This document shows, one piece after another, positions 724 through 18,916 of a stretch of 20,000 nt of DNA. The notes under the pieces are model-generated. The model saw only the letters and a list, made by a program, of their open reading frames with translations. It had not been told where the DNA came from and did not search any database. Position numbers and translations under genes: made by a program. The stretch lies in NCBI GenBank assembly GCA_000182565.2, contig KQ257452.1; one strand, given 5' to 3'. Position 1 is the stretch's first letter. Every line of letters starts with the position of its first letter. The stretch comes from Spizellomyces punctatus DAOM BR117. Lineage: Eukaryota.

Positions 724-3200
724 TTATCGGATACTCTTATCTAGCATCTCTGGATCCATCAGTACCACGTCTCTCAGCACCTTGCCAAACGTGAGGCTGA
801 CTGCATCCTGGAATTTTGCGAGAGCATCCAGAGGTGAATCAGTGTCCTGTAGCGGATATGCATTCCGGAGGATCGAGCGCAGTTCTGCCATTGGCATTGG
901 AAGCTTCAATTCTACAGTATGAGAACAGTTCAGTACAGATTGAAACATCCACAAACAAGAAAAAAATGGTGTCTCTAAAACACACCTTCCAGAAGATTCC
1001 CAACGCTCTCGACTAAACTCGGAAACGCTTTAGCAATATTTACCAAAACCCCTACAATCGTTTCCGTCCAGCCTTCTACCCGTGGGGGAAAAGGAATTGT
1101 CGTTGCCGTGTCCCTGGACGCCTTAAGGTGCTTGTTATATTTGGAGAGATCAAGGCACAGGTGGGCGATGTTGGGTAGAATCAAATGCTTTGCTTGGTGG
1201 AGACTTGTAGAAAATGAGCAACACAATTCTGATACTACAAATCACACACTCTGGTGAAGACGCACCTTTTTTCGATTGGATAGGTTTCGCCCAACCATCC
1301 AAACAATTGCAATCCAAATACCCTAACGCGAATATTCGGATGCTCGAGCATGCCTGGGACAAAATCAAAACACACATCTGCACAACAGTCGGTGTTTTAT
1401 TGATACGGGGTCTGCGGTAATGAAAACCAGAACAAACGCACGGACATGGAACACATACGCATAGAAGGCACGCCCTCCACAACCCCCTTTAATATTTCCA
1501 CCGGAAACGTCTGGAATGCGACAACGCGTATCAGAATTGGATCTTCAATGAACATCTGGTGAATAAAGTCGTATATAAAGGGGCGGATTGATTCTGGAGT
1601 GGTAAAGCGTGAGAAGAGTACGTTCTTGGACGTCAAACGGCAGAACTGGGTATTACCCTCGCCGCCGACTAGTCCTTCGAGAAGACATTGGATGATGGCC
1701 GCGTCTTGGGTTTGTATGAGGGTATCTATTGTTGTTGGAGGTAGGTATGCCTCCGGCTAACCAACCCCACATTAGTAAGTTTGCTTCACCTCCTCTGGAT
1801 GCACAAATTACAAACCTTTATTCCGCCGGCCCATAGTTTCCTCCATCGATGTTTCGAGGCAATCATGTAATACGTCAAGACCTATCCAATTCCCCATCCG
1901 CGAGCGGTCAAAAACCTGTCCAAGAAAGGACATGCCGATAACGCTTACCCGCAGGAAAATTCTTAAGGCGCCTCGTCTGAATACCTCTCGACATGAGAAG
2001 ACAATCAATGGATCCATAACGAGTGTATGGTGATCATAAGGCTTTGCATTCCTATCGAAACTTTTCTTAATACCAAGCATTACGGTGGAGAGGCAGACGC
2101 GATACGAACAAAGGCCTCAAGGTATTCACAGTCGCCAGACATGTTTCACGGGGATTGATCGTGTATAATGATATCCAAAGGGAAAAGAATTGTGTGCTGA
2201 TGTCTGATGTGGTTCTAGTGCGCTGTTATATCAGCCGTGGTGCGTGTCAATGCTATATCGGTGTGTGACATACTGAGGGTTTGTGATGCGGGGTAGTAGG
2301 TTTGTGGTAACGGTCGCGAAATGAGTTTGGAGGTCCATCAATGTTAGGGAATCCAGATACGATATAACTGGCGATATCCCCCATTTCGAAATCTCAGAAA
2401 ATGGAAATCGTGTAATATTAACAATGTCGCTGCTCTCACCTGCACGAAGATCCTCTTCTTTCCCACTACTTAATAAAATATTGACATCCGCTGCCTCCAT
2501 CTCTTTGCCTATCAAAGCAAAACCCCTGACAGCCGCGGGCACCACCGCACTCTTGTCCCTGCAACCCTCCTCGCAGAGAAATCCACCGACATCGAGAACC
2601 TCTGGATACTGGGCGCACATGAGTGCCCAGAAACGAGGATATAGAGTGTGGTATGTGGGTTGGTTTGAAGGATCCTCGACATGAGAGAGAATTTGCTTCG
2701 TTGGGATACGGTCCAAGAGGTTATCGGTATACTCCTCCACTGCACATTACAGTTAATAGCGAGTACGACAACGGGTGCTCTGCAAAGTCGGACATACATT
2801 CGTAGATGGGATCACCGCCTTGTTTTTGCAGACCTGATCTTCGTTCCTCTACCATATCGTTATAGAGCAAAACGTAGTATAAAGCAAGGACATGTCGTGC
2901 TGATATGGTCTTCCGGTTTTCAAATAGGAGAGCTATATCTGCTTCAGATATCCCGGTTACCGGTCCTCTTTTACCAACACTGGAAACCTCATATAGTCAC
3001 TACCGAAAACATGGTCCAACTGAGACGAGTGTAAACTACCTTTCGACGTATAGTTCGAGTGCTTTCGGCAAAACAGGGTCCAGCGGGACATGGGCATTCT
3101 TAATTTGGTCGAAAGTCCACTGCTGAATGTCTACATTGGGTTTGGGTAAGATGTCACCGCGAAGGATCTGGCAGACTATGCGGGTAGATAGGGAAACCAT
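724..3200 (-). CDS. INTS2: Integrator complex subunit 2 homolog, C-terminal half only, 587 aa. Exons 3200-3040, 2979-2798, 2739-2440, 2367-2274, 2214-2110, 2051-1949, 1881-1816, 1756-1657, 1593-1459, 1377-1266, 1203-986, 911-724
   Basis: All 11 introns are GT-AG and phase-consistent (1764 nt total). Colinear blocks resembling recalled animal INTS2 sequence: QWTFDQIKNAHVPLDPVLPKALELYVES, HVLALYYVLLYND, YTDNLLDRIPTKQIL, LWISLYTINPRETCLATVNTL, LVMDPLIVFSCREVFR, QTQDAAIIQCLLE, FIHQMFIEDPILIRVVAFQTFPVEILKGVVEGVPSMHVCFDFVPGML, IAKAFPSLVE. Confidence 0.88.
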
Positions 3201-3331
3201 TTAAGTTTCATTCCCAAGATCTACATTCACCTCCCTTTGGCCGACGAGGTGTCAGGTGCTAAGTCGCGCGTTCACAGTCGCGTTGCCAGCGAACGGGCTC
3301 TTGAGCATATTCAAATACTCACGACATCAAA
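3201..3331. promoter_or_regulatory. Putative bidirectional promoter between INTS2 (-) and TBCA (+)
   Basis: Only 131 bp separates the divergent start codons. It contains two AGTCGCG copies (aagtcgcgcgttcacagtcgcgttg, about 3261-3285). Confidence 0.55.
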
Positions 3332-3864
3332 ATGTTGAGCAACACAAAGGTGAATGTCCCTTGCTTCAAGTTCACATGCCGTTCAGATCGACCTTACATA
3401 AATCCATGTAGCCCTCAATGGACAGCGCAATCCGAAAGCTAAAGGTTCAAACGGGCGCAGTAAAACGGTACGCAACGTCGTGCTGCTGCTGGCCTCAACA
3501 ATTCCTAACGTTCATCGTACCAGCATAAGCAAGGACCTTTCATATTATGAAAAGGAAGCAGCTAAACAGCAGGAACGAATCGATAAACTCGTCGCGGACG
3601 GAGCTGACGAACACGACATTCGCAAACAAAAAGAGGTATTGGAGGAGACCAACCAGATGCTTCCAGAGAGTAAAAAGAGGCTTGCAGCTGCGTATAAAGA
3701 GTTGGCGGATTTGGTAGAGAAGTATTTGGTAAGTAGAGATTTGCTGAGCTGTCTTTCTAATTGGTATTGATGGGGCCTCTCTGCAGAGTGCTGCTGGATC
3801 TGAGGAAGTTGCACCTGAGGAAGTTCTAGCTGCTCAAACAGTGTTGCAAGAAGTGCGGGTATAA
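3332..3864 (+). CDS. TBCA: Tubulin-specific chaperone A (Rbl2/TBCA). Exons 3332-3349 (tentative), 3412-3467, 3524-3728, 3787-3864. Alternative start at ATG 3418
   Basis: Spliced product (MLSNTKPS)MDSAIRKLKVQTGAVKRISKDLSYYEKEAAKQQERIDKLVADGADEHDIRKQKEVLEETNQMLPESKKRLAAAYKELADLVEKYLSAAGSEEVAPEEVLAAQTVLQEVRV*. This is the typical cofactor A sequence. Confidence 0.93.
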
Positions 3865-3894
3865 TAACCAAGATGTACATATAATATAATAATT

Positions 3895-6800
3895 TCATAA
3901 ATATCTACGAACATCCCCGATCGCTCCGATGCACTTCTTGGCCTGTTCCCTCACCAACACGGCCCCATCCCCAGAGCACATCCCCTTTAACTTGGCCATA
4001 ACATCATGAATGCTAATAAACTGGGTCATCTCCGCATCCGACAAGCTTCTTACAATATGATACAAAATGTGCAATAAGTTTAATCGAACCATTGTTTCAG
4101 GGTGAGAGAGATGTGAGCAGATTTTTTGACCGAACAAGGAATAGCGGGCAATCGAGCGGCAGATCTTCGACGATGCCACTAGGATTCGTTGGAAGGGAGT
4201 GAGAATGCTTTCGAATGTTGCCGCTTCAGCTTGGCAGAATGCCAAGACCAACTTTTCCGCGTGGTGCGACAAGCAGAGTTGACTCTCGATTTGGTCGCTG
4301 TCGTTCGACATCCTGCGATTATTCGATCAATATAATTATCAAGATATATTGCCTCACTTCATGTTCGGTTGACAGTATGCTTACCATGTGGAGATAGCCT
4401 CGAGCGCGTCCACTTGCCAGCATGGATCCACTAGTAACGAAATGAACGACAACAATGCACCGTTCTGCCACAGTATTTTCCTGCATGTAGCACCAGCATT
4501 GACCATATCGGTCAAGATTGGTATGGCAAATTGCTTTAGAGGACTTCTCGTTTCCACAAAGCCTTGAAGGCAAGGCACGGCACCCTCAAGAGCAGCCGCT
4601 AGTTGCCGAGATTTGTTGAGACGACACAGGTTATACAGAGCATTCAAGGCTTGGTTTTGGATATCCTATGCATGCAGATGTCAGACACCACTTTGGCATA
4701 GTTTAATCGACTAACTTACTGTGAAAAACGGTCCATCCCGCAAGGTCAATATTTGACACAGCGGTCGAATTACATCCGCTTTTTCAAGTGACCGCAGGGT
4801 TTCTGAATGCATGGTAACGTTCTTCACGCATTTTAAAACTTTAACCAGTATTGGGGCAGCCAATTGTGGTACGGTGTTCACTATCCCTGGAATAACCATA
4901 TTTAGATATGAAAAGTGCAACCGCGGACGTAGCTCGAATCAGGACATAGGTCAGGCATACCTCTGATGCAAGCGTCTTTTGCGAGCGACTCCTTGAGCGA
5001 TACGTCGCCTTGAGAAAACATGACCAGCATATTGGCAATCTGATCAGTGTAACGATATGCTTCTGGATCCGTATCTTCATTCAGTTCACCAAAGACCCGT
5101 GATAATGATCTCAGTAGCCCGTGCTTCACGAAGAGATGGCAAATATCCGTTCGAGGGGTGGAACTCTATGAGTAGGCAACAGAGTTAAACTCGTCCAGGA
5201 TGATTTTGTTAGCATGGTCCCACACCTGCAATTCCAACACTCCGGATATCCCGTCAATACCCGAAAAAATTAGAACCTTCGACGTCCGATAATCAACTTC
5301 CAACAGATTAACTAGCGCCCGAACACCACCGCACGCCATAAACATCCGTAGTGAGTTGGAACTGGTGGTGCAGACGCGTTTTAAGAAGAGCGCTGCTTCT
5401 TCACGGACGTTGAGACGATACTCTGAGTTCGTTAAATCAATGAGCGTATTCAGCCCACCAAGTAGGCATATGTTCTCCTGTATCAGCATGTCACGCTGTG
5501 CGCTCTACCTTGGTATTTAAGGGTTAGATTATCACTGTGGAGGTACCCTGGGTGAAAACCACGGACCTTATTTATCAATCGTAACATTGTCCACTGTAAT
5601 TGCTCGTCTCTTTGGAATTTCAGCGCATCCAGTATAGGCCCGATAGCATGATGAGTGATTAGCATTTTACTCGCTTGAGGATGAGTGTCAAGCAGAGCCA
5701 ACTGACAGATGAATTGCATAACTGAGTTACGATGATGGATGAATGACGATCTTAACGGCCCAACCTACCGCTGCATCGCAGCTACGGCACAATACATTAG
5801 GGTCGTCCTCTTTTCGTAGGCGTTCGATGAACTCCACGACGCCCGATGTCATTGGTAGGGTATAGTCCTTCGCAACGGTTTCCTCGAATGCTGTACTAGT
5901 GATCAAAACGTGGTGGGATCCAAAGAGGAAACGCTAAGCTTCTTACCCATATTCTCCAGGACGCTTAGGAAAGGATCGTCTTCCGTGTCGCTATCTTCCT
6001 CGGAAGGCTTACTGGCAGCTGGCAACGCCAGCCAGCATGGGGCCTGCGATATGTTTACGTTAAATATACTTCGTTGTAAAATACAGAAATGGTATAGAAA
6101 GACACCTTGTGATCACTGGCATCAGGGCCCTGTTGGTCTGAATAAACGAAACTCTCATCATCAACAACTATCACTGAGGTAGTTCGTTTTTGCGCATTTA
6201 ATACAACCTTTGCTTTTCGCCTGTAAATTCACATCAAATGGTTCAAAGTCGTTGTCCCAGACATCGCTACTCATGTCCGGTTCGCACAACTCCTCAACGT
6301 CTGCTTTTGGAGGATTCGACGACGCAGTGAACTTTGTCGTGGACGCTGGTCGCAAAGGAGATGAGCGATCTGTTGTTGCCCGCTCTATTTGGAGGAGAAG
6401 AGTTTTGTTTATATACGTGACATGTGATAAAGATGTTATACTCTGAAGGCGCACTTTCACGGCTTCCTTTGCTTTGGGAGCTTGGAGATCTTGGAAGGCT
6501 TGACGCAGCTCTGGCGATTTGTCCGTCGTTCATGTCCTCTAGAATGTATTGCTGAAGATCTCGCGCCACTACCTGCAGAAATGTTACTATGCTACCTATT
6601 TACCAAGTGGATGTGTCCGCCACGAAACCCTCACCCTTCTTCGTGCACTTTCGATCCATGGATGCTTTAGAAGCCTTTTGGCAGAGATCCGCAAATTGGC
6701 GTCTTTTTGAAAGCATTCCATGAGAAAATCTCGGAGCATCTGCCTCGAAGGGAAAGATCCCAAGTCAATATAGCATGATGCAATTGATGCGACAATATGA

Positions 6801-7952
6801 CACGTACCACAGAGGTTTGGGCAGGTAGGGATGGATGATCATCGTGAACAATGCGAAATAGCGCCGACATTGGTGCGAGTGTGTGATATGGTGGGTGACC
6901 TTGTAGCAATTCAATGGCCGTGCAGCCGACACTCCTAGAGATCCATGTCTCAGCAGATGCACAAAATGGCTTTTGATTTTTTCAGTACCAAATGTCGGAC
7001 GCAGTCGTGGCACCGTGCAGTTCAATAACTTCAGGGGCCACTTTAAACAGGTGGTACATCGCCATGAGATAAAGAGCCTAGTCTGCCGAAAAACTTGCGG
7101 AACTTACTCCAATACGGAGATCCGGCAAATACTTTATTTGTAGCGTTAATCTTGCTCGCAATACCGAAGTCTGCCCAAATGCTGTGGGTTACTATCAAAG
7201 ACCCAAGTATAGAAAATTATAAGAATTATACCGGCCAGCTTGACCTGCCCTTTCTTAGTTGTAAGGATGTTCTGCAAATAGGAGGAAAACCCTTCCAGTT
7301 ATTATCATACTTGAGCTGATCGGCTGAAGTACCTACCGCAGCCTTGATATCACGATGAATGACACCTTGTTCATGCAAATAGACTAGACCCTCAAGTACT
7401 TGGGCAATATAGAGAGCAACGAGATGCTCCGGAAAGCGACCAAATCTTCTACAAATATTCGACAAGGACCCATTTTCGCAGTATCTTCATGAATGAAACA
7501 GATACCGGGTCATTTTATGGAAACGCGATTGAAGATAGAGATAAGATCTCAAGTGCCTACTCCATAATAATATTCAAGTATTCGGGCGTCTTGACAAATC
7601 CTAGATATTGCACAATGTTGGCATGCTGGTTGGTGTCGCCAATCAATAACGATCCTGATGGCTTTTAACAATTATGTGATACATGCGGACTCACATTCAG
7701 CTCCTTCAGCAAATCAATCTCTCCCTGAAAGAGCAAGTCAGATATGAATAAGCCGAGAATGTTTATCAACTTATAACGGGAGTACCGCACCGTAATAAGA
7801 GTCAAGTCGGGTTTCGCGATATTGGAGAGCCGGAGCTGCTTCACGGCCACGACCTCTCCGGTCTCCGTAACAAGGCCAGAATACACGCACCCAAAGGCAC
7901 CCTTTCCCAAGCAATCTCCCAGTTGAATTGCATCTGCCAAGATAATCGTCAT
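3895..7952 (-). CDS. CDC15: STE-group Ser/Thr kinase of the Cdc15/Cdc7/SepH family (MEN/SIN), with an N-terminal kinase domain and C-terminal ARM-like repeats. Multi-exon
   Basis: Spliced kinase motifs: [141 protein letters not shown]. Family-typical C-terminal blocks: [71 protein letters not shown]. The exact start codon is less certain. Confidence 0.92.
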
Positions 7953-8097
7953 GGAGTGTCAAAGTGGGCATAGATCGGCCAGAAAGACATGTCCGACCAA
8001 ATGGACAATCGATTACATAACGCGTTCTCATCACGTGATGATCGAGGAATCGGACCTGTGGGAGTTCGCACTTTTGAATCAATTGTGGAATCAACGC
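7953..8097. promoter_or_regulatory. Putative bidirectional promoter between CDC15-like (-) and ELG1 (+), with an MCB-like box and an E-box palindrome
   Basis: 145 bp between the inferred ATGs. ACGCGT at 8020-8025 and a perfect 14-bp palindrome TCATCACGTGATGA at 8028-8041. Confidence 0.6.
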
Positions 8098-11000
8098 ATG
8101 GCACGTAATGCAGCCTCGAAATCCTTTTTGCTGGACTCGGATTTGTTTGACCCTGAGGACGGAGGTGGGTGCTCCACAGTAGGTGCGTCATGAACTTGTA
8201 ACTTTTAGTTTGACCTGCTGCATGCAACTAGGTGCAGCCCGATCTACGGTGACCGATGCTTCCAATATGACCTTGGAAGCGGAAGAGCCCACCATTCCTG
8301 CGGTGTTGTCAGATACCCCCACGTCGGATGAGCTCGCAAAAAATTGCGAAACTTCTTCTGTCGGGGACACAGTAGCTGCCATCGCTGTACCGCCAGGGAT
8401 CACCGTGAGTTATTCATCTGTGCTTGCAGGTAAGCAGTGGAGACAGACTGTTACTGACCCCCTCTCAGGTGCCATTATACCCGCTCTTTCAGCGTCCTAT
8501 AAAAAAGAATCTGAAAAAATGCCCTAAGCCCATGCCCAAAGATACTAGTACAACCACAACGCGCCAACCAGCTTCACAGGTCTGAGTTTTCAAAAGGCAA
8601 ATCGCTTTAATGACATACATCTCTGAATGCGGATCATCTGCATTCCGTCGCAGACCAGAACGGACTCTGCTGTCCTTGTCGGAGAAAGTCAGCCACCCCT
8701 CCAAGTGCCTGCTCTCGTCTCATCGACTACCCCTTTGGCTCCTCCTGAAAAATCTATTAACGATATCCTCAAATCGAAGGGTATATCGAATTTCTTCAAT
8801 CCTCGAAGGACCGAAAACGGCAATAATGCACGTCAGGGCTCAAAACAAGCGGTCACAGCATACTTTCCCGACTCATTTTGTTGCCATGTTGGTGCAACGC
8901 ATCACTTGACTGGTCAGACCAGTAATCTGGCACCCGGATTTCATCCCAAATCAGATACCAGCACGGATCTCCAGCCCAGTGGTGATAGTATCGGAGCGAT
9001 GCATGACTTTCTCAGAGGTCGTACTACCCGACGCGTGTGTCAAGAGGAGAAAAAGCTCAGCAGCGGTCAATCTATTCCCAAAGTGAAGGCCAACAGATCT
9101 GCTCTCTCGCGCCTCCTGCGTTGTCTGTACTCGTCCGATGCTCTCTTTACTCCGGCATGCAAAGCTTTGTACGATCAACTAATCAGCCCAAGCACCGGCT
9201 TCGGACCAGACGGCTCGATATTCAGTGACAAGCCGCTGGGACGACAACAGGAGGACGTGTCCTCAGCTCTTGAGCGTTGGCTAGAACACTGGAAATACGC
9301 ATCTTCCCACAAACCTCCGAAGAAGCGCAGAAAGCGGACTAGTGGTACGTGAAATTTGGCAGTGTGGACACACACAACCTGCTGAACTTTGAGGGCAACA
9401 GGTTCGGACTCCGAGTCTCCGCTGAGTGATTGGGAAGATTATTGGGATGTGGAGTGGAACGCAGCCTCTAAGAATATCATGCTGATTGGCGCTCCGGGAT
9501 CTGGAAAGACCAGGTTAATACATTCGGCAGCAAAACGCTGCGGGTATAACGTATTGGAGATCAATGCTAGCTGCAGACGTAGTGCTAAAGACATTTTAAC
9601 GATTCTGACCGAGGCGACGCAGAGTCAGGCTCTTCCACCGAAGGACGGGGTCAAGTATCAAGAATGGGAACTATATGATACAAGGGATGGCCCACCCTTG
9701 CTGGAGCAACGTGAAGAGTCTTTGAACGCAGAGAGCGACGGTTTGGATGCATCCCAGGCAATTGTAGCTGTCCAGCAACTGGAAGGCGTGATACGAACTG
9801 CCAAGAAGACGCGACGGCAAAACCTGATATTTTTCGACGAAGTAGACTTTTTGTCCGAGGATGATAAGGGGTTCTGGAAAAGCGTACTCACGTTGCTCGA
9901 AAATAGCAAATGCCCGGCTGCCTTCGCTTGCAATGGCAAGTCTTCATATGTCATTTGTTTTGTTGGGTACCATGAGTCTAACATTGCTGCAGATAATCCT
10001 CTGACACTGTCAAACCCAAGTATATCTAGCACCACGCTTCCTCTCCTCAAGGATCTAATCACTCCCCTGTACTTTACCCCGCCAAGCGTAGAAGAGCTAA
10101 CTTGCTATAATCATCTGACACTTTTGTCCTTAAACACCTGGATCGAGGATCCCAGTGACCTGGCAAGATGGTCTGAGGCTGCCCGAGGAGACATCCGGAG
10201 ATGCGTCCATCGGCTGCCGTTGGCGCTTGTGCCATCTTGCCGAGAGAGCAACTTGTGTGTTCATTGCGCGGAGGAGGAATTAGAGGTTGAGATGGTAGAT
10301 GTTGAATTGACGGACGCAGAAAAGGAGAACACGTTCTGCCTGATGCAATTACCGCCACAGTGTGGGGTGTCGTTCGAAGGAGCCGAGTCATTGGATTTTC
10401 TGCAGCTCAATAGTCCTATCTCCCATGACCCCCAGACTACGTCACCAGAGAGTACATATGATCCAGAGGATACCAAGCCGCCCACCACCGCCAACGGACT
10501 TTATCCGGACTATGGCAGCTCAATCAACACCGCTGCGACTTGTACTGAAAATTTGTCGTTCATGGATACGGTTCTGCGTTCAACTCATTGGCGAATATCA
10601 CAGGTAACCAGCTTTTCATGAATCTTATCGACAGCGCTCCTGACTTCCGTCTTTTTGGCTGCCAAGATGCAAGAACCAGAGTTAGCATCTACATCCATAG
10701 GCATGAACGCAGATGCATTATATGCATATTGTTCTATTGTTCAACCAGTATCATATCCAGTGGATGCAGCATCTGGTCTATGGGAAGAATTTTGGGAGGT
10801 GGACGTTCATGAAGAGAGGAAAGAGAAAAGGTATCTCGTTACAGTTCCTTTCGACATGTCTATCAATGCAAATTACTCAATGGACGCTACGATCTGCAAT
10901 ACAGACCAGACTACGGAGATCTTGGTGATTTAATCTCATCAGGCACACCTGAACGCACTCTCGCACTCGATATTCTCCCCATGTTGACTCTGATGTTCCG

Positions 11001-11268
11001 ATTGGATCGTGAAGATCCGTCAGCGCCCATCAGCGATTCGACTGAACTCGCGTCTCTCCTGGTAAAACGGCGGTTGCGACGATCTGCTAAACGCTATGTG
11101 AGGTGGTTCGATGGCATGGTGCCTGAAGAAATTGCCAATGCCTACGGACGAATAGCGTATGGCACAGGACCTGAGAATGGACCGTCGTTTGCAGAGGTGC
11201 TGAAGAAGAGGATGCAGGAGGCTCAGGCTCAGTTGGTTTATGAGGTAATGGACGATCAAGAGTGTTAG
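8098..11268 (+). CDS. ELG1: ELG1/ATAD5-like alternative RFC large subunit (PCNA unloader), about 904 aa. Exons 8098-8164, 8232-8404, 8469-8579, 8654-9344, 9402-9935, 9993-10603, 10667-10830, 10905-11268
   Basis: Walker A IMLIGAPGSGKT, then GYNVLEINASCRRSAKDILTILTEATQSQ, Walker B LIFFDEVD and DDKGFWKSVLTLLENSKCPAAFACND. The EATQS and DKGFW blocks point to Elg1/ATAD5 rather than Rfc1/Ctf18. The exon chain is phase-consistent (2715 nt). The 5' exons are less certain. Confidence 0.88.
9936..9992 (+). other. GC-AG spliceosomal intron in ELG1
   Basis: G|GCAAGT donor, CTAAC branch point and TGCAG acceptor. Removal restores the conserved C-N-D after the sensor strand. Confidence 0.8.
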
Positions 11269-11412: not shown

Positions 11413-17316
<5,904 letters not shown>

Positions 17317-17453
17317 NNNNNNNNNNNNNNNNNNNNNNNNNNNNNNNNNNNNNNNNNNNNNNNNNNNNNNNNNNNNNNNNNNNNNNNNNNNNNNNNNNNN
17401 NNNNNNNNNNNNNNNNNNNNNNNNNNNNNNNNNNNNNNNNNNNNNNNNNNNNN
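17317..17453. other. Assembly gap (137 N)
   Basis: Run of N characters. Confidence 1.
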
Positions 17454-17455
17454 CC

Positions 17456-17590
17456 CACTTCGTAGATCACCTCGAAAACTGTTTGAACGTTTGCTTCAAA
17501 AACAATTACAAGGCCATGGGCCATGACTGTGCCGTGCACAGTGACTATATGCACTTCGTTCGTCGCGCATCAGCAGCAGAGTGTCGTTGA
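17456..17590 (+). CDS. Possible terminal exon of an unidentified gene whose body lies in the gap
   Basis: Open frame from the gap edge: HFVDHLENCLNVCFKNNYKAMGHDCAVHSDYMHFVRRASAAECR*, with coding-like codon usage. No family recognised. Confidence 0.35.
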   Translation, partial: HFVDHLENCLNVCFKNNYKAMGHDCAVHSDYMHFVRRASAAECR

Positions 17591-17807
17591 GCACTTGGTT
17601 GAGGTTCAACATTCTACTTGTCAATCGAGGTGGTTGGAAACATTTACAAACTTGCATATATCCCTGGCCCTTGTTGATTGGTACATTTTATAGAGCTGAA
17701 TGTTGTTTATACTGGTGACTATCAGCTTACCCATTGTGCTATACAACAGATCTACGAAACCCACACGGACAACTATCACCGCAAAACCCCACACCCACCA
17801 AAAACAC

Positions 17808-18916
17808 ATGGGTAACGTTCCTGCATAAAAGTACATTGACAACCACACATTTTTCACAATGGCGAAAAGTAGATCGACCAGACGCATACACGGATTCACA
17901 TCCAACACCCAAAAGACCTAAACCCAAAAAAAAGGAGAAATCCCTCGATGCACGCGAAAAGGATGAGCGAGAGGAAGAAGGTAACGAAATACCGTTTTTG
18001 GGGGGTAAACTCGCAGAAACTTACGGTTCGAGATTAGATTTAGAACACCCCCTAACAAAAAAAGAACGAAAACATAAAGAATACCAAGAACGACTCGAAA
18101 GACTCAACCGAGACTTTTTACACAACAAAGAACGGTACACCCTTTCTCCACTCCCTCCCCCAGCTTTCTTTCCCATTCTTACTTTTCATTAGCATCTTTC
18201 AAGATAAACTCGGAACCTTCAAACAAGACATCCAAACCCTCTCCCAAGGAACCCACCCAGAATTCACAGACATTCTCCGCGTATTCGACCAAGATCGACA
18301 ACAAGCTGTTGATTATGCGGCTTTGTTTAGGGATTACCAGTTGGATTGTGCTAATGTTATTTATCGGCATGAACATGATTCGACTGTGTTGGAGTACAAG
18401 GTATGGAGGAATGTCGGTTTTTGTGAAGATCTTTTGTTTATTTAGGGTATTTGGTATTGTAGAAGGAGAAAGAATCATTGCGTGAGAAACTATTGAGTAA
18501 CCTTGAAGAAAAGAAACGGAAACTAAAAGAAGATCGTGAGAATTTTGATATGCATACTGGTACGTTATATACTTACTCTATCGTTGTAACACTTTTAACA
18601 ATTTTGGATAGTTGTGGTAGACACCATTGAAGATCAACGCCTTGGAACCCGAAAAGCCACCCGCTCACACGCAGCTAAAACAGATGATAAAAAAGAAAAA
18701 CGACGAAAAACGCAGGCGTTACCGGGGTTGGTCGTTTTGGCTTCGGATGATGTTGCGTTACAAGATTTGAGTATCATTCGACGGGTGCGTTTTTTATTTT
18801 CTTTGCAAAACGGACGTGTGTGTGTGTATTGATTTGTTGTTTATTATTTTTGTTTGGGGTAGGCGGGGTACGCAGCAGCCAAAAAAAGCCTAGTCCCCAA
18901 ACCAGTACGAAAATAA
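17808..18916 (+). CDS. SDS3: Sds3/BRMS1-family Sin3-HDAC complex subunit, about 241 aa. Exons 17808-17811, 17873-17980, 18044-18134, 18193-18400, 18463-18559, 18621-18784, 18863-18916
   Basis: Spliced product includes RLERLNRDFLHNKERIFQDKLGTFKQDIQTLSQGTHPEF, ALFRDYQLDC, EYKKEKESLREKLLSNLEEKKRKLKEDRENFDM and LASDDVALQDLSIIR, matching the Sds3-like coiled coil and C-terminal motif. All phases are consistent (726 nt). Confidence 0.85.

Follow-up and report, generated by a model that had tools for sequence, protein, structure and literature searches.

A gene for the C-terminal half of INTS2 in Spizellomyces punctatus, and the probable loss of the N-terminal half

Introduction

What has become of the N-terminal half of INTS2 in the fungus Spizellomyces punctatus? 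The gene at positions 724 to 3,200 of the 20,000-nucleotide stretch analysed here (the window; contig KQ257452.1 of assembly GCA_000182565.2, strain DAOM BR117) encodes a protein that resembles only the latter part of this Integrator subunit, and the missing part might have been lost, might be encoded as a separate gene, or might be hidden by a faulty gene model or assembly. The Integrator backbone is not known to have been studied in any form other than that of the full-length human subunits. In the human complex, the INTS1/2/7 backbone holds the nuclease and phosphatase modules, according to the available text of a review that restricts Integrator to metazoans (PMC9006982), and the accessible portions of further papers report that INTS2 helical repeat 1 contacts RPB11, that segments of the Pol II CTD are bound both where INTS2, INTS4 and INTS7 meet and in a pocket between INTS2 and INTS6 (10.1101/2021.11.29.470345), that PP2A is positioned by INTS2, 5, 6 and 8 (PMC11062913), and that an INTS2 arch covers DSS1 on INTS7 (PMC12228764). 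A literature search, with subscription papers including the first INTAC structures outside its scope, found no paper on fungal or truncated INTS2, and the available parts of PMC7471841, 10.1101/2024.01.24.576984 and 10.64898/2026.10.14.759114 hold nothing on fungal or halved INTS2. It is already known from the databases that early-diverging fungi have an annotated INTS2, and the half-length protein itself is deposited there; what is discussed here is a new form of a known subunit, not a new kind of system.

The gene, its product and its start codon

The half-length INTS2 gene lies on the minus strand at 724..3200, with its ATG at 3200 and a stop codon that ends at 724, and an in-frame TAA at 3201..3203 (minus strand, codon 3203-3201) directly precedes the ATG in the sequence. 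When exon combinations were tested, a 12-exon model with 11 GT..AG introns gave a 587-aa translation without an internal stop, from exons at 3200-3040, 2979-2798, 2739-2440, 2367-2274, 2214-2110, 2051-1949, 1881-1816, 1756-1657, 1593-1459, 1377-1266, 1203-986 and 911-724 (minus strand), and this translation is identical to database protein P0001, labelled at its source as an uncharacterised protein of Spizellomyces punctatus. The sequence and the identity to P0001 both agree with an earlier interpretation made from the DNA alone (the sequence-only reading), which had described an intact open reading frame with an ATG at 3200 after an in-frame TAA. Its 12 exons and 587 aa likewise match P0001, but a 72-nt in-frame segment at 2439-2368 (minus strand), treated as an intron in that model, is coding in the congener protein P0002 (613 aa, 87% identical to P0001 and with an identical Met start), and 11-exon models of 611-617 aa outscore the 12-exon model against P0002 (2870-2881 versus 2764). 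The segment is probably coding, or alternatively spliced, and the product may be about 611-614 aa long, as the 11-exon model fits the congener better; in the AlphaFold model of P0002 the segment falls in a low-confidence loop (residues 165-230).

The gene is transcribed and spliced at its 3' end, where the last intron (985-912, minus strand) is seen spliced in 6 reads with 5 starts in RNA run X6, an intron at 1265-1204 (minus strand) is spliced in one contig of run X1, and the minus-strand RNA depth in run X6 is 58 at 754-880. Run X6 is 3'-biased, and usable RNA coverage extends to two of the 11 introns, leaving the 5' end uncovered. The absence of stops and frameshifts, the canonical introns and the spliced reads together uphold the earlier argument against a pseudogene.

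The uncovered 5' end is also what gives some room to the explanation that the half-length protein is an artefact, in which distant upstream exons are joined to it through an intron spanning the neighbouring genes or by trans-splicing, or in which the region is misassembled, and AG acceptors do exist at 3176 and 3168, the first of them after a pyrimidine-rich stretch. I nevertheless consider an artefact highly improbable. In the list of acceptors, the first AG downstream of the in-frame TAA is the one at 3176, and use of it or of the one at 3168 would remove initial residues that the congener conserves and that align with a helix of full-length relatives. The first coding exon (3040..3200, minus strand) covers positions 506-550 of the PF14750 profile, and in alignment A1 the part homologous to full-length relatives sets in about three residues past the Met; its start is shared with P0002, a separately deposited protein that begins identically. 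A contig of run X3 spans 3139-3381 with zero differences, which speaks against misassembly to the extent that the run is independent, since it may come from the source sample. Finally, no N-half exons were found within 100 kb on either side of the locus.

Genes around the locus

The divergent neighbour is a gene for tubulin-binding cofactor A (TBCA) on the plus strand, mapped from 3332 to its last mapped splice site at 3786, with the last exon following, and matched to PF02970 at E 7e-21. Two of its introns are seen spliced, in 11 and 31 reads, and the 11 reads across the intron at 3350-3411 support a start at 3332. A start at 3418 was considered as well, and these same reads rule it out as the sole start; the first exon has only six codons and the second in-frame ATG, at 3418, lies just past the first intron, making two starts possible. 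Between the divergent start codons of TBCA and the INTS2 half are 131 nt (3201..3331), which presumably contain a shared promoter and the 5' UTRs. The ATG at 3332, the spliced reads and the PF02970 match bear out the earlier statement that TBCA begins 131 bp away, and the statement that an upstream gene on the same strand (there called CDC15) has its stop at 3895 is borne out too, by the stop codon itself (3897-3895) and by the match of a protein kinase domain at 7668-7958 within a gene that occupies 3895..7958 on the minus strand.

This neighbourhood is tightly packed. At 3786-3900 the convergent TBCA and kinase genes are separated by hardly any sequence, and reads in both directions are present in the 3802-3928 bin. 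On the other side lies a plus-strand transaldolase transcript, for which 71 reads have loose poly(A) ends at 693; the stop codon of the minus-strand INTS2 gene is only 31 nt away, and the 3' UTRs of the two genes probably overlap. Farther away are ordinary housekeeping neighbours, an AAA ATPase gene at 8183-11268, which I take to be clamp-loader-like, and an Sds3-like gene at 17719-18485. A gene of the RNA polymerase largest-subunit type (minus strand, about 11413-17600, with Rpb1 domain 5 matched) contains a run of 137 N at 17317-17453, and the assembly therefore has gaps.

Identity as the C-terminal half of INTS2

The whole protein scores 234.3 bits against PF14750 (curated cut-off 25) over positions 506-1040 of 1050, five of seven exon pieces matched the same family, the first of them at position 506, and human INTS2 is matched at E 2.7e-33 over human residues 555-1082. 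The sequence-only reading had placed the first residues near the middle of animal INTS2, and alignment of the spliced protein puts them there, at human residue 555 and profile position 506 of 1050. A structural comparison gives the same answer, in that the AlphaFold model of P0002 (pLDDT 77.8, pTM 0.71), searched with Foldseek, returned human INTS2 as its top five matches, which are also its five significant ones, with E down to 4.7e-18 and a TM-score of 0.74 by query and 0.45 by target. From this model it is predicted that the half folds on its own as a helical solenoid like human INTS2 from residue 555 to its end.

The gene falls in a clade with three named Spizellomycetales INTS2 proteins and is the single locus found in the genome by the PF14750 search, both of which speak for orthology. 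Profile positions 1-505 are missing from the chain, and an in-frame stop stands before the ATG. The protein is thus a truncated INTS2 orthologue consisting of the C-terminal half, and not a canonical INTS2.

When and where the shortening arose

Relatives were taken from the best 150 of 417 cluster-representative matches, and the 136 with at least 300 profile columns of the C-half were kept, shorter matches being dropped. Among these 136 of the best 150, at least 200 residues precede the break in 92 and 46-199 in a further 11; 10 start no more than 45 residues from the break and 23 start further downstream. A half-length INTS2 as the norm in the fungi that possess one would have removed the interest of the locus, as the sequence-only reading had itself pointed out, and the 92 of 136 relatives (of the best 150) that keep at least 200 residues before the break contradict it. 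The starts of the remaining 44 of the 136 (again of the best 150), all with fewer than 200 residues before the break, are scattered; truncated automated models are common in the INTS2 family, and some of the short ones are surely annotation, because P0066, P0014 and P0116 are short singly inside full-length clades.

The nearest relatives allow the event to be placed. Spizellomyces groups with Fimicolochytrium, Powellomyces and Geranomyces with an SH-aLRT of 100 in a 40-row tree, and the proteins of these genera have 455 (P0009), 337 (P0004) and 239 (P0003) residues before the break; the congener starts at the same Met as S. punctatus, and between 239 and 455 upstream residues survive in all three sister genera, which places the shortening on the Spizellomyces branch. 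Chytrid INTS2 models are graded at the N-terminus more generally, with 239 residues before the break in P0003, 337 in P0004, 70 in P0007 and about 220 in P0012, compared with about 500 in most animals, an erosion that is either real or a product of annotation. The break itself corresponds to a low-confidence loop between two helices, residues 328-333 of P0004 in the model of the full-length Powellomyces protein, where the alignment is gappy. The C-half branch of Spizellomyces measures about 1.04 from the shared node, against 0.99-1.58 for the three sister genera, and is not obviously lengthened.

A second group of short proteins is found in the Mucoromycotina, a clade with an SH-aLRT of 99 in which the N-half is missing from six of six proteins: P0040 of Hesseltinella (582 aa), P0051 of Dichotomocladium (547 aa), P0155 (526 aa) and P0022 of Umbelopsis, and P0060 and P0129. 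The Hesseltinella and Dichotomocladium proteins start 4 and 11 residues from the Spizellomyces break (their contigs are 382 kb and 2.4 Mb long), and only these two of the six start within 11 residues of it, the other four doing so further downstream. A shared origin of the Spizellomyces and Mucoromycotina forms was rejected with p-AU 0.00015 in a test of 23 rows, for a group named after the first tree had been seen. The Mucoromycotina therefore seem, from this tree test and from gene models that come from protein records, to have shortened INTS2 independently at about the same loop, and this recurrence could partly be annotation.

Searching for the N-terminal half

Two outcomes had been set against each other by the sequence-only reading, fission of the gene with the N-half encoded elsewhere, or a lineage that uses a reduced Integrator lacking that half, and it had proposed a search of the whole genome for the missing part. 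With PF14750 and the relatives P0004, P0009, P0005, P0003 and P0006 as queries, the Spizellomyces genome gave 3, 5, 4, 3, 6 and 4 matches, respectively, and no N-half; 24 of these 25 matches are in the C-half at the INTS2 locus, and the one elsewhere, also in the C-half, has a chance-level E of 1.06. Searching the same genome with just the N-part of P0004 gave 0 matches. Closer to the gene, the best score of an N-half profile over 220 kb around the locus (the window and 100 kb on each side; 7607 segments plus those of the window) was 6.1 bits, and over the same region its C-half counterpart picked up eight exon segments at E < 1e-5. Two conserved N-half motifs, exact in 6 and 5 of 10 relatives, were also scanned against the genome DNA and gave 16 and 15 matches against 8 and 11 for controls; none of the 31 motif-match loci exceeded 7.5 bits with N-half profiles, with which N pieces that had been held out reached as much as 75 bits.

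Several individual candidates were rejected along the way. L060 (contig C19), the only exact N-half motif match, is a chance match without profile support, and a weak N-profile match in the C-terminal exon of the kinase gene, at 6.0 bits, is at chance level. A remnant of the N-half in frame upstream of the ATG looks suggestive by eye, and scored -2.3 bits, a value equalled or exceeded by 5364 of 8880 background windows; two further tests of it (363/2000 and 833/6000) were not significant.

Would such searches have found an N-half if it were present? Between N-part and C-part, identities among the three sister genera are 37 versus 33, 59 versus 52 and 41 versus 31%, the N-part being equally conserved, and in a calibration with Spizellomycetales relatives 50-residue N pieces were recovered at E < 0.01 in 5 of 6 query pairings, so that an N-half evolving at a normal rate is within reach. 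Proteins made up of the N-half only were also sought in databases. None was found in a weak search of proteins of 30-444 aa, a blank that counts little because the word-based searches recovered only P0001 and P0002 and missed relatives that are 38% identical, and an Atlas search with the N-half of P0008, which covered large clusters, returned generic helical-repeat clusters and full-length INTS2 but no N-half-only cluster.

Fission, in which the N-half would persist as a gene of its own that evolves faster and lies elsewhere or is hidden in an assembly gap, with the two halves reassembling on INTS7, is to my mind an unlikely explanation that still deserves serious weight. The break at a variable loop between helices is a natural split point, the C-half is without clear relaxation, and human INTS2 touches RPB11, the Pol II CTD, INTS4, INTS6 and INTS7 in the accessible text of 10.1101/2021.11.29.470345, which makes the loss of half the protein look costly. 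It stays alive because the genome search, which scores few candidates, gave false negatives (the INTS9 C-terminal family, IntS9_C, came back blank though the INTS9 gene is present) and because the 5' end is without RNA coverage. Against it stand the nine genome queries bearing on the N-half, none of which found it, the calibration that makes an N-half detectable at normal rates and, more weakly, the database blank for an N-half-only protein. The proposed genome search, non-exhaustive as it is, leans to loss; the pair of outcomes in the sequence-only reading was fairly drawn, and loss of the N-half is the favoured one, with fission having gained no positive support.

A probably retained Integrator

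The other outcome of that pair, a reduced complex, fares unevenly: INTS2 is indeed half-length, but reduction beyond INTS2 is not borne out. Four beta-CASP loci were found in the genome, among them INTS11 (L047:646-2502 of G000:C14, minus strand), which scores E 9e-206 against 5e-94 for CPSF73 and is largely one open frame of 619 codons, and INTS9 (E 1.3e-14); the remaining two are, by likeness, presumably CPSF73 and CPSF100, and the INTS11/INTS9 nuclease pair is distinct from these. Such a large single frame, seen in INTS11, stands out in a genome of intron-rich genes. INTS7 is represented by INTS7_N positions 1-274 over five exons and by INTS7_HB, its C-terminal domain going undetected in the family search, and INTS6 and INTS3 are present. 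Seven family searches of the genome for INTS1, 4, 5 and 8 were blank, and these blanks are uninformative, the same search having also missed the C-terminal family of INTS9 in the presence of INTS9.

Read at face value, the blanks for INTS1, INTS4, INTS5 and INTS8 would favour yet another explanation, that the half is a relic or a repurposed protein outside Integrator, either decaying or used elsewhere. This strikes me as barely plausible, given a gene that is transcribed, spliced and free of stops and frameshifts, with a product 87% identical to that of the congener, and given five other subunits in the genome, including an INTS11 (E 9e-206) in an open frame of 619 aa; the blanks, for their part, do not show that those subunits are missing. 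Judging from these partner genes, the half-protein is most likely a member of the Integrator complex.

Loss of the N-half of INTS2 within a retained Integrator is thus the explanation that I think probable. An ancestor of Spizellomyces would have lost the upstream half of its INTS2 gene, and translation would now begin from a start codon in the loop that precedes a helix, giving a protein of about 600 residues. This half-protein would still form part of the backbone in a functional Integrator built on INTS7, with INTS9/INTS11, INTS6 and INTS3, whose genes are present and whose assembly with it I infer, and the contacts of the lost half may have been dispensable or may have been taken over by other subunits. 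The Mucoromycotina would have shortened INTS2 at about the same loop separately.

A bolder version of this account, which I offer as speculation and consider decidedly unlikely, more so than fission, is that two fungal lineages independently halved INTS2 at the same loop and, together with the N-half, lost both INTS1 and the phosphatase shoulder of INTS5/INTS8; what remains would be a minimal, nuclease-centred Integrator of INTS2-C, INTS7, INTS9/11, INTS6 and INTS3. If it were true, the minimal Integrator would be an intermediate toward the loss of the complex in yeasts, available in a chytrid amenable to culture and experiment. Short of that, an INTS2 that is halved where the nuclease pair is intact indicates which part of the scaffold the complex may be able to do without. 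That INTS2 seems to have been shortened at this loop a second time suggests that a true module boundary lies there, which human or fly cells carrying deleted or split versions of the protein could put to the test.

Comparison with known INTS2 proteins

One point of comparison is human INTS2 (PDB 7cun_B and 8rc4_b; PF14750), part of the INTS1/2/7 backbone module of Integrator-PP2A. The two share the same fold, with a TM-score of 0.74 over the whole fungal protein, and differ in that the fungal protein is without about 550 N-terminal residues, the TM-score by target being 0.45. The genes for the human partners INTS7, 9, 11, 6 and 3 are also in the Spizellomyces genome, whereas the searches for INTS1, 4, 5 and 8 were blank in a way that is not evidence of absence. 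The short INTS2 proteins of the Mucoromycotina resemble that of Spizellomyces in being without the N-half and differ from it in their separate origin and in the four starts that lie further downstream. A third comparison is with the INTS2 proteins of the sister Spizellomycetales (P0004, P0003 and P0009), whose C-halves are 31-36% identical to that of Spizellomyces and whose N-termini vary in length among themselves, be this real or a matter of annotation.
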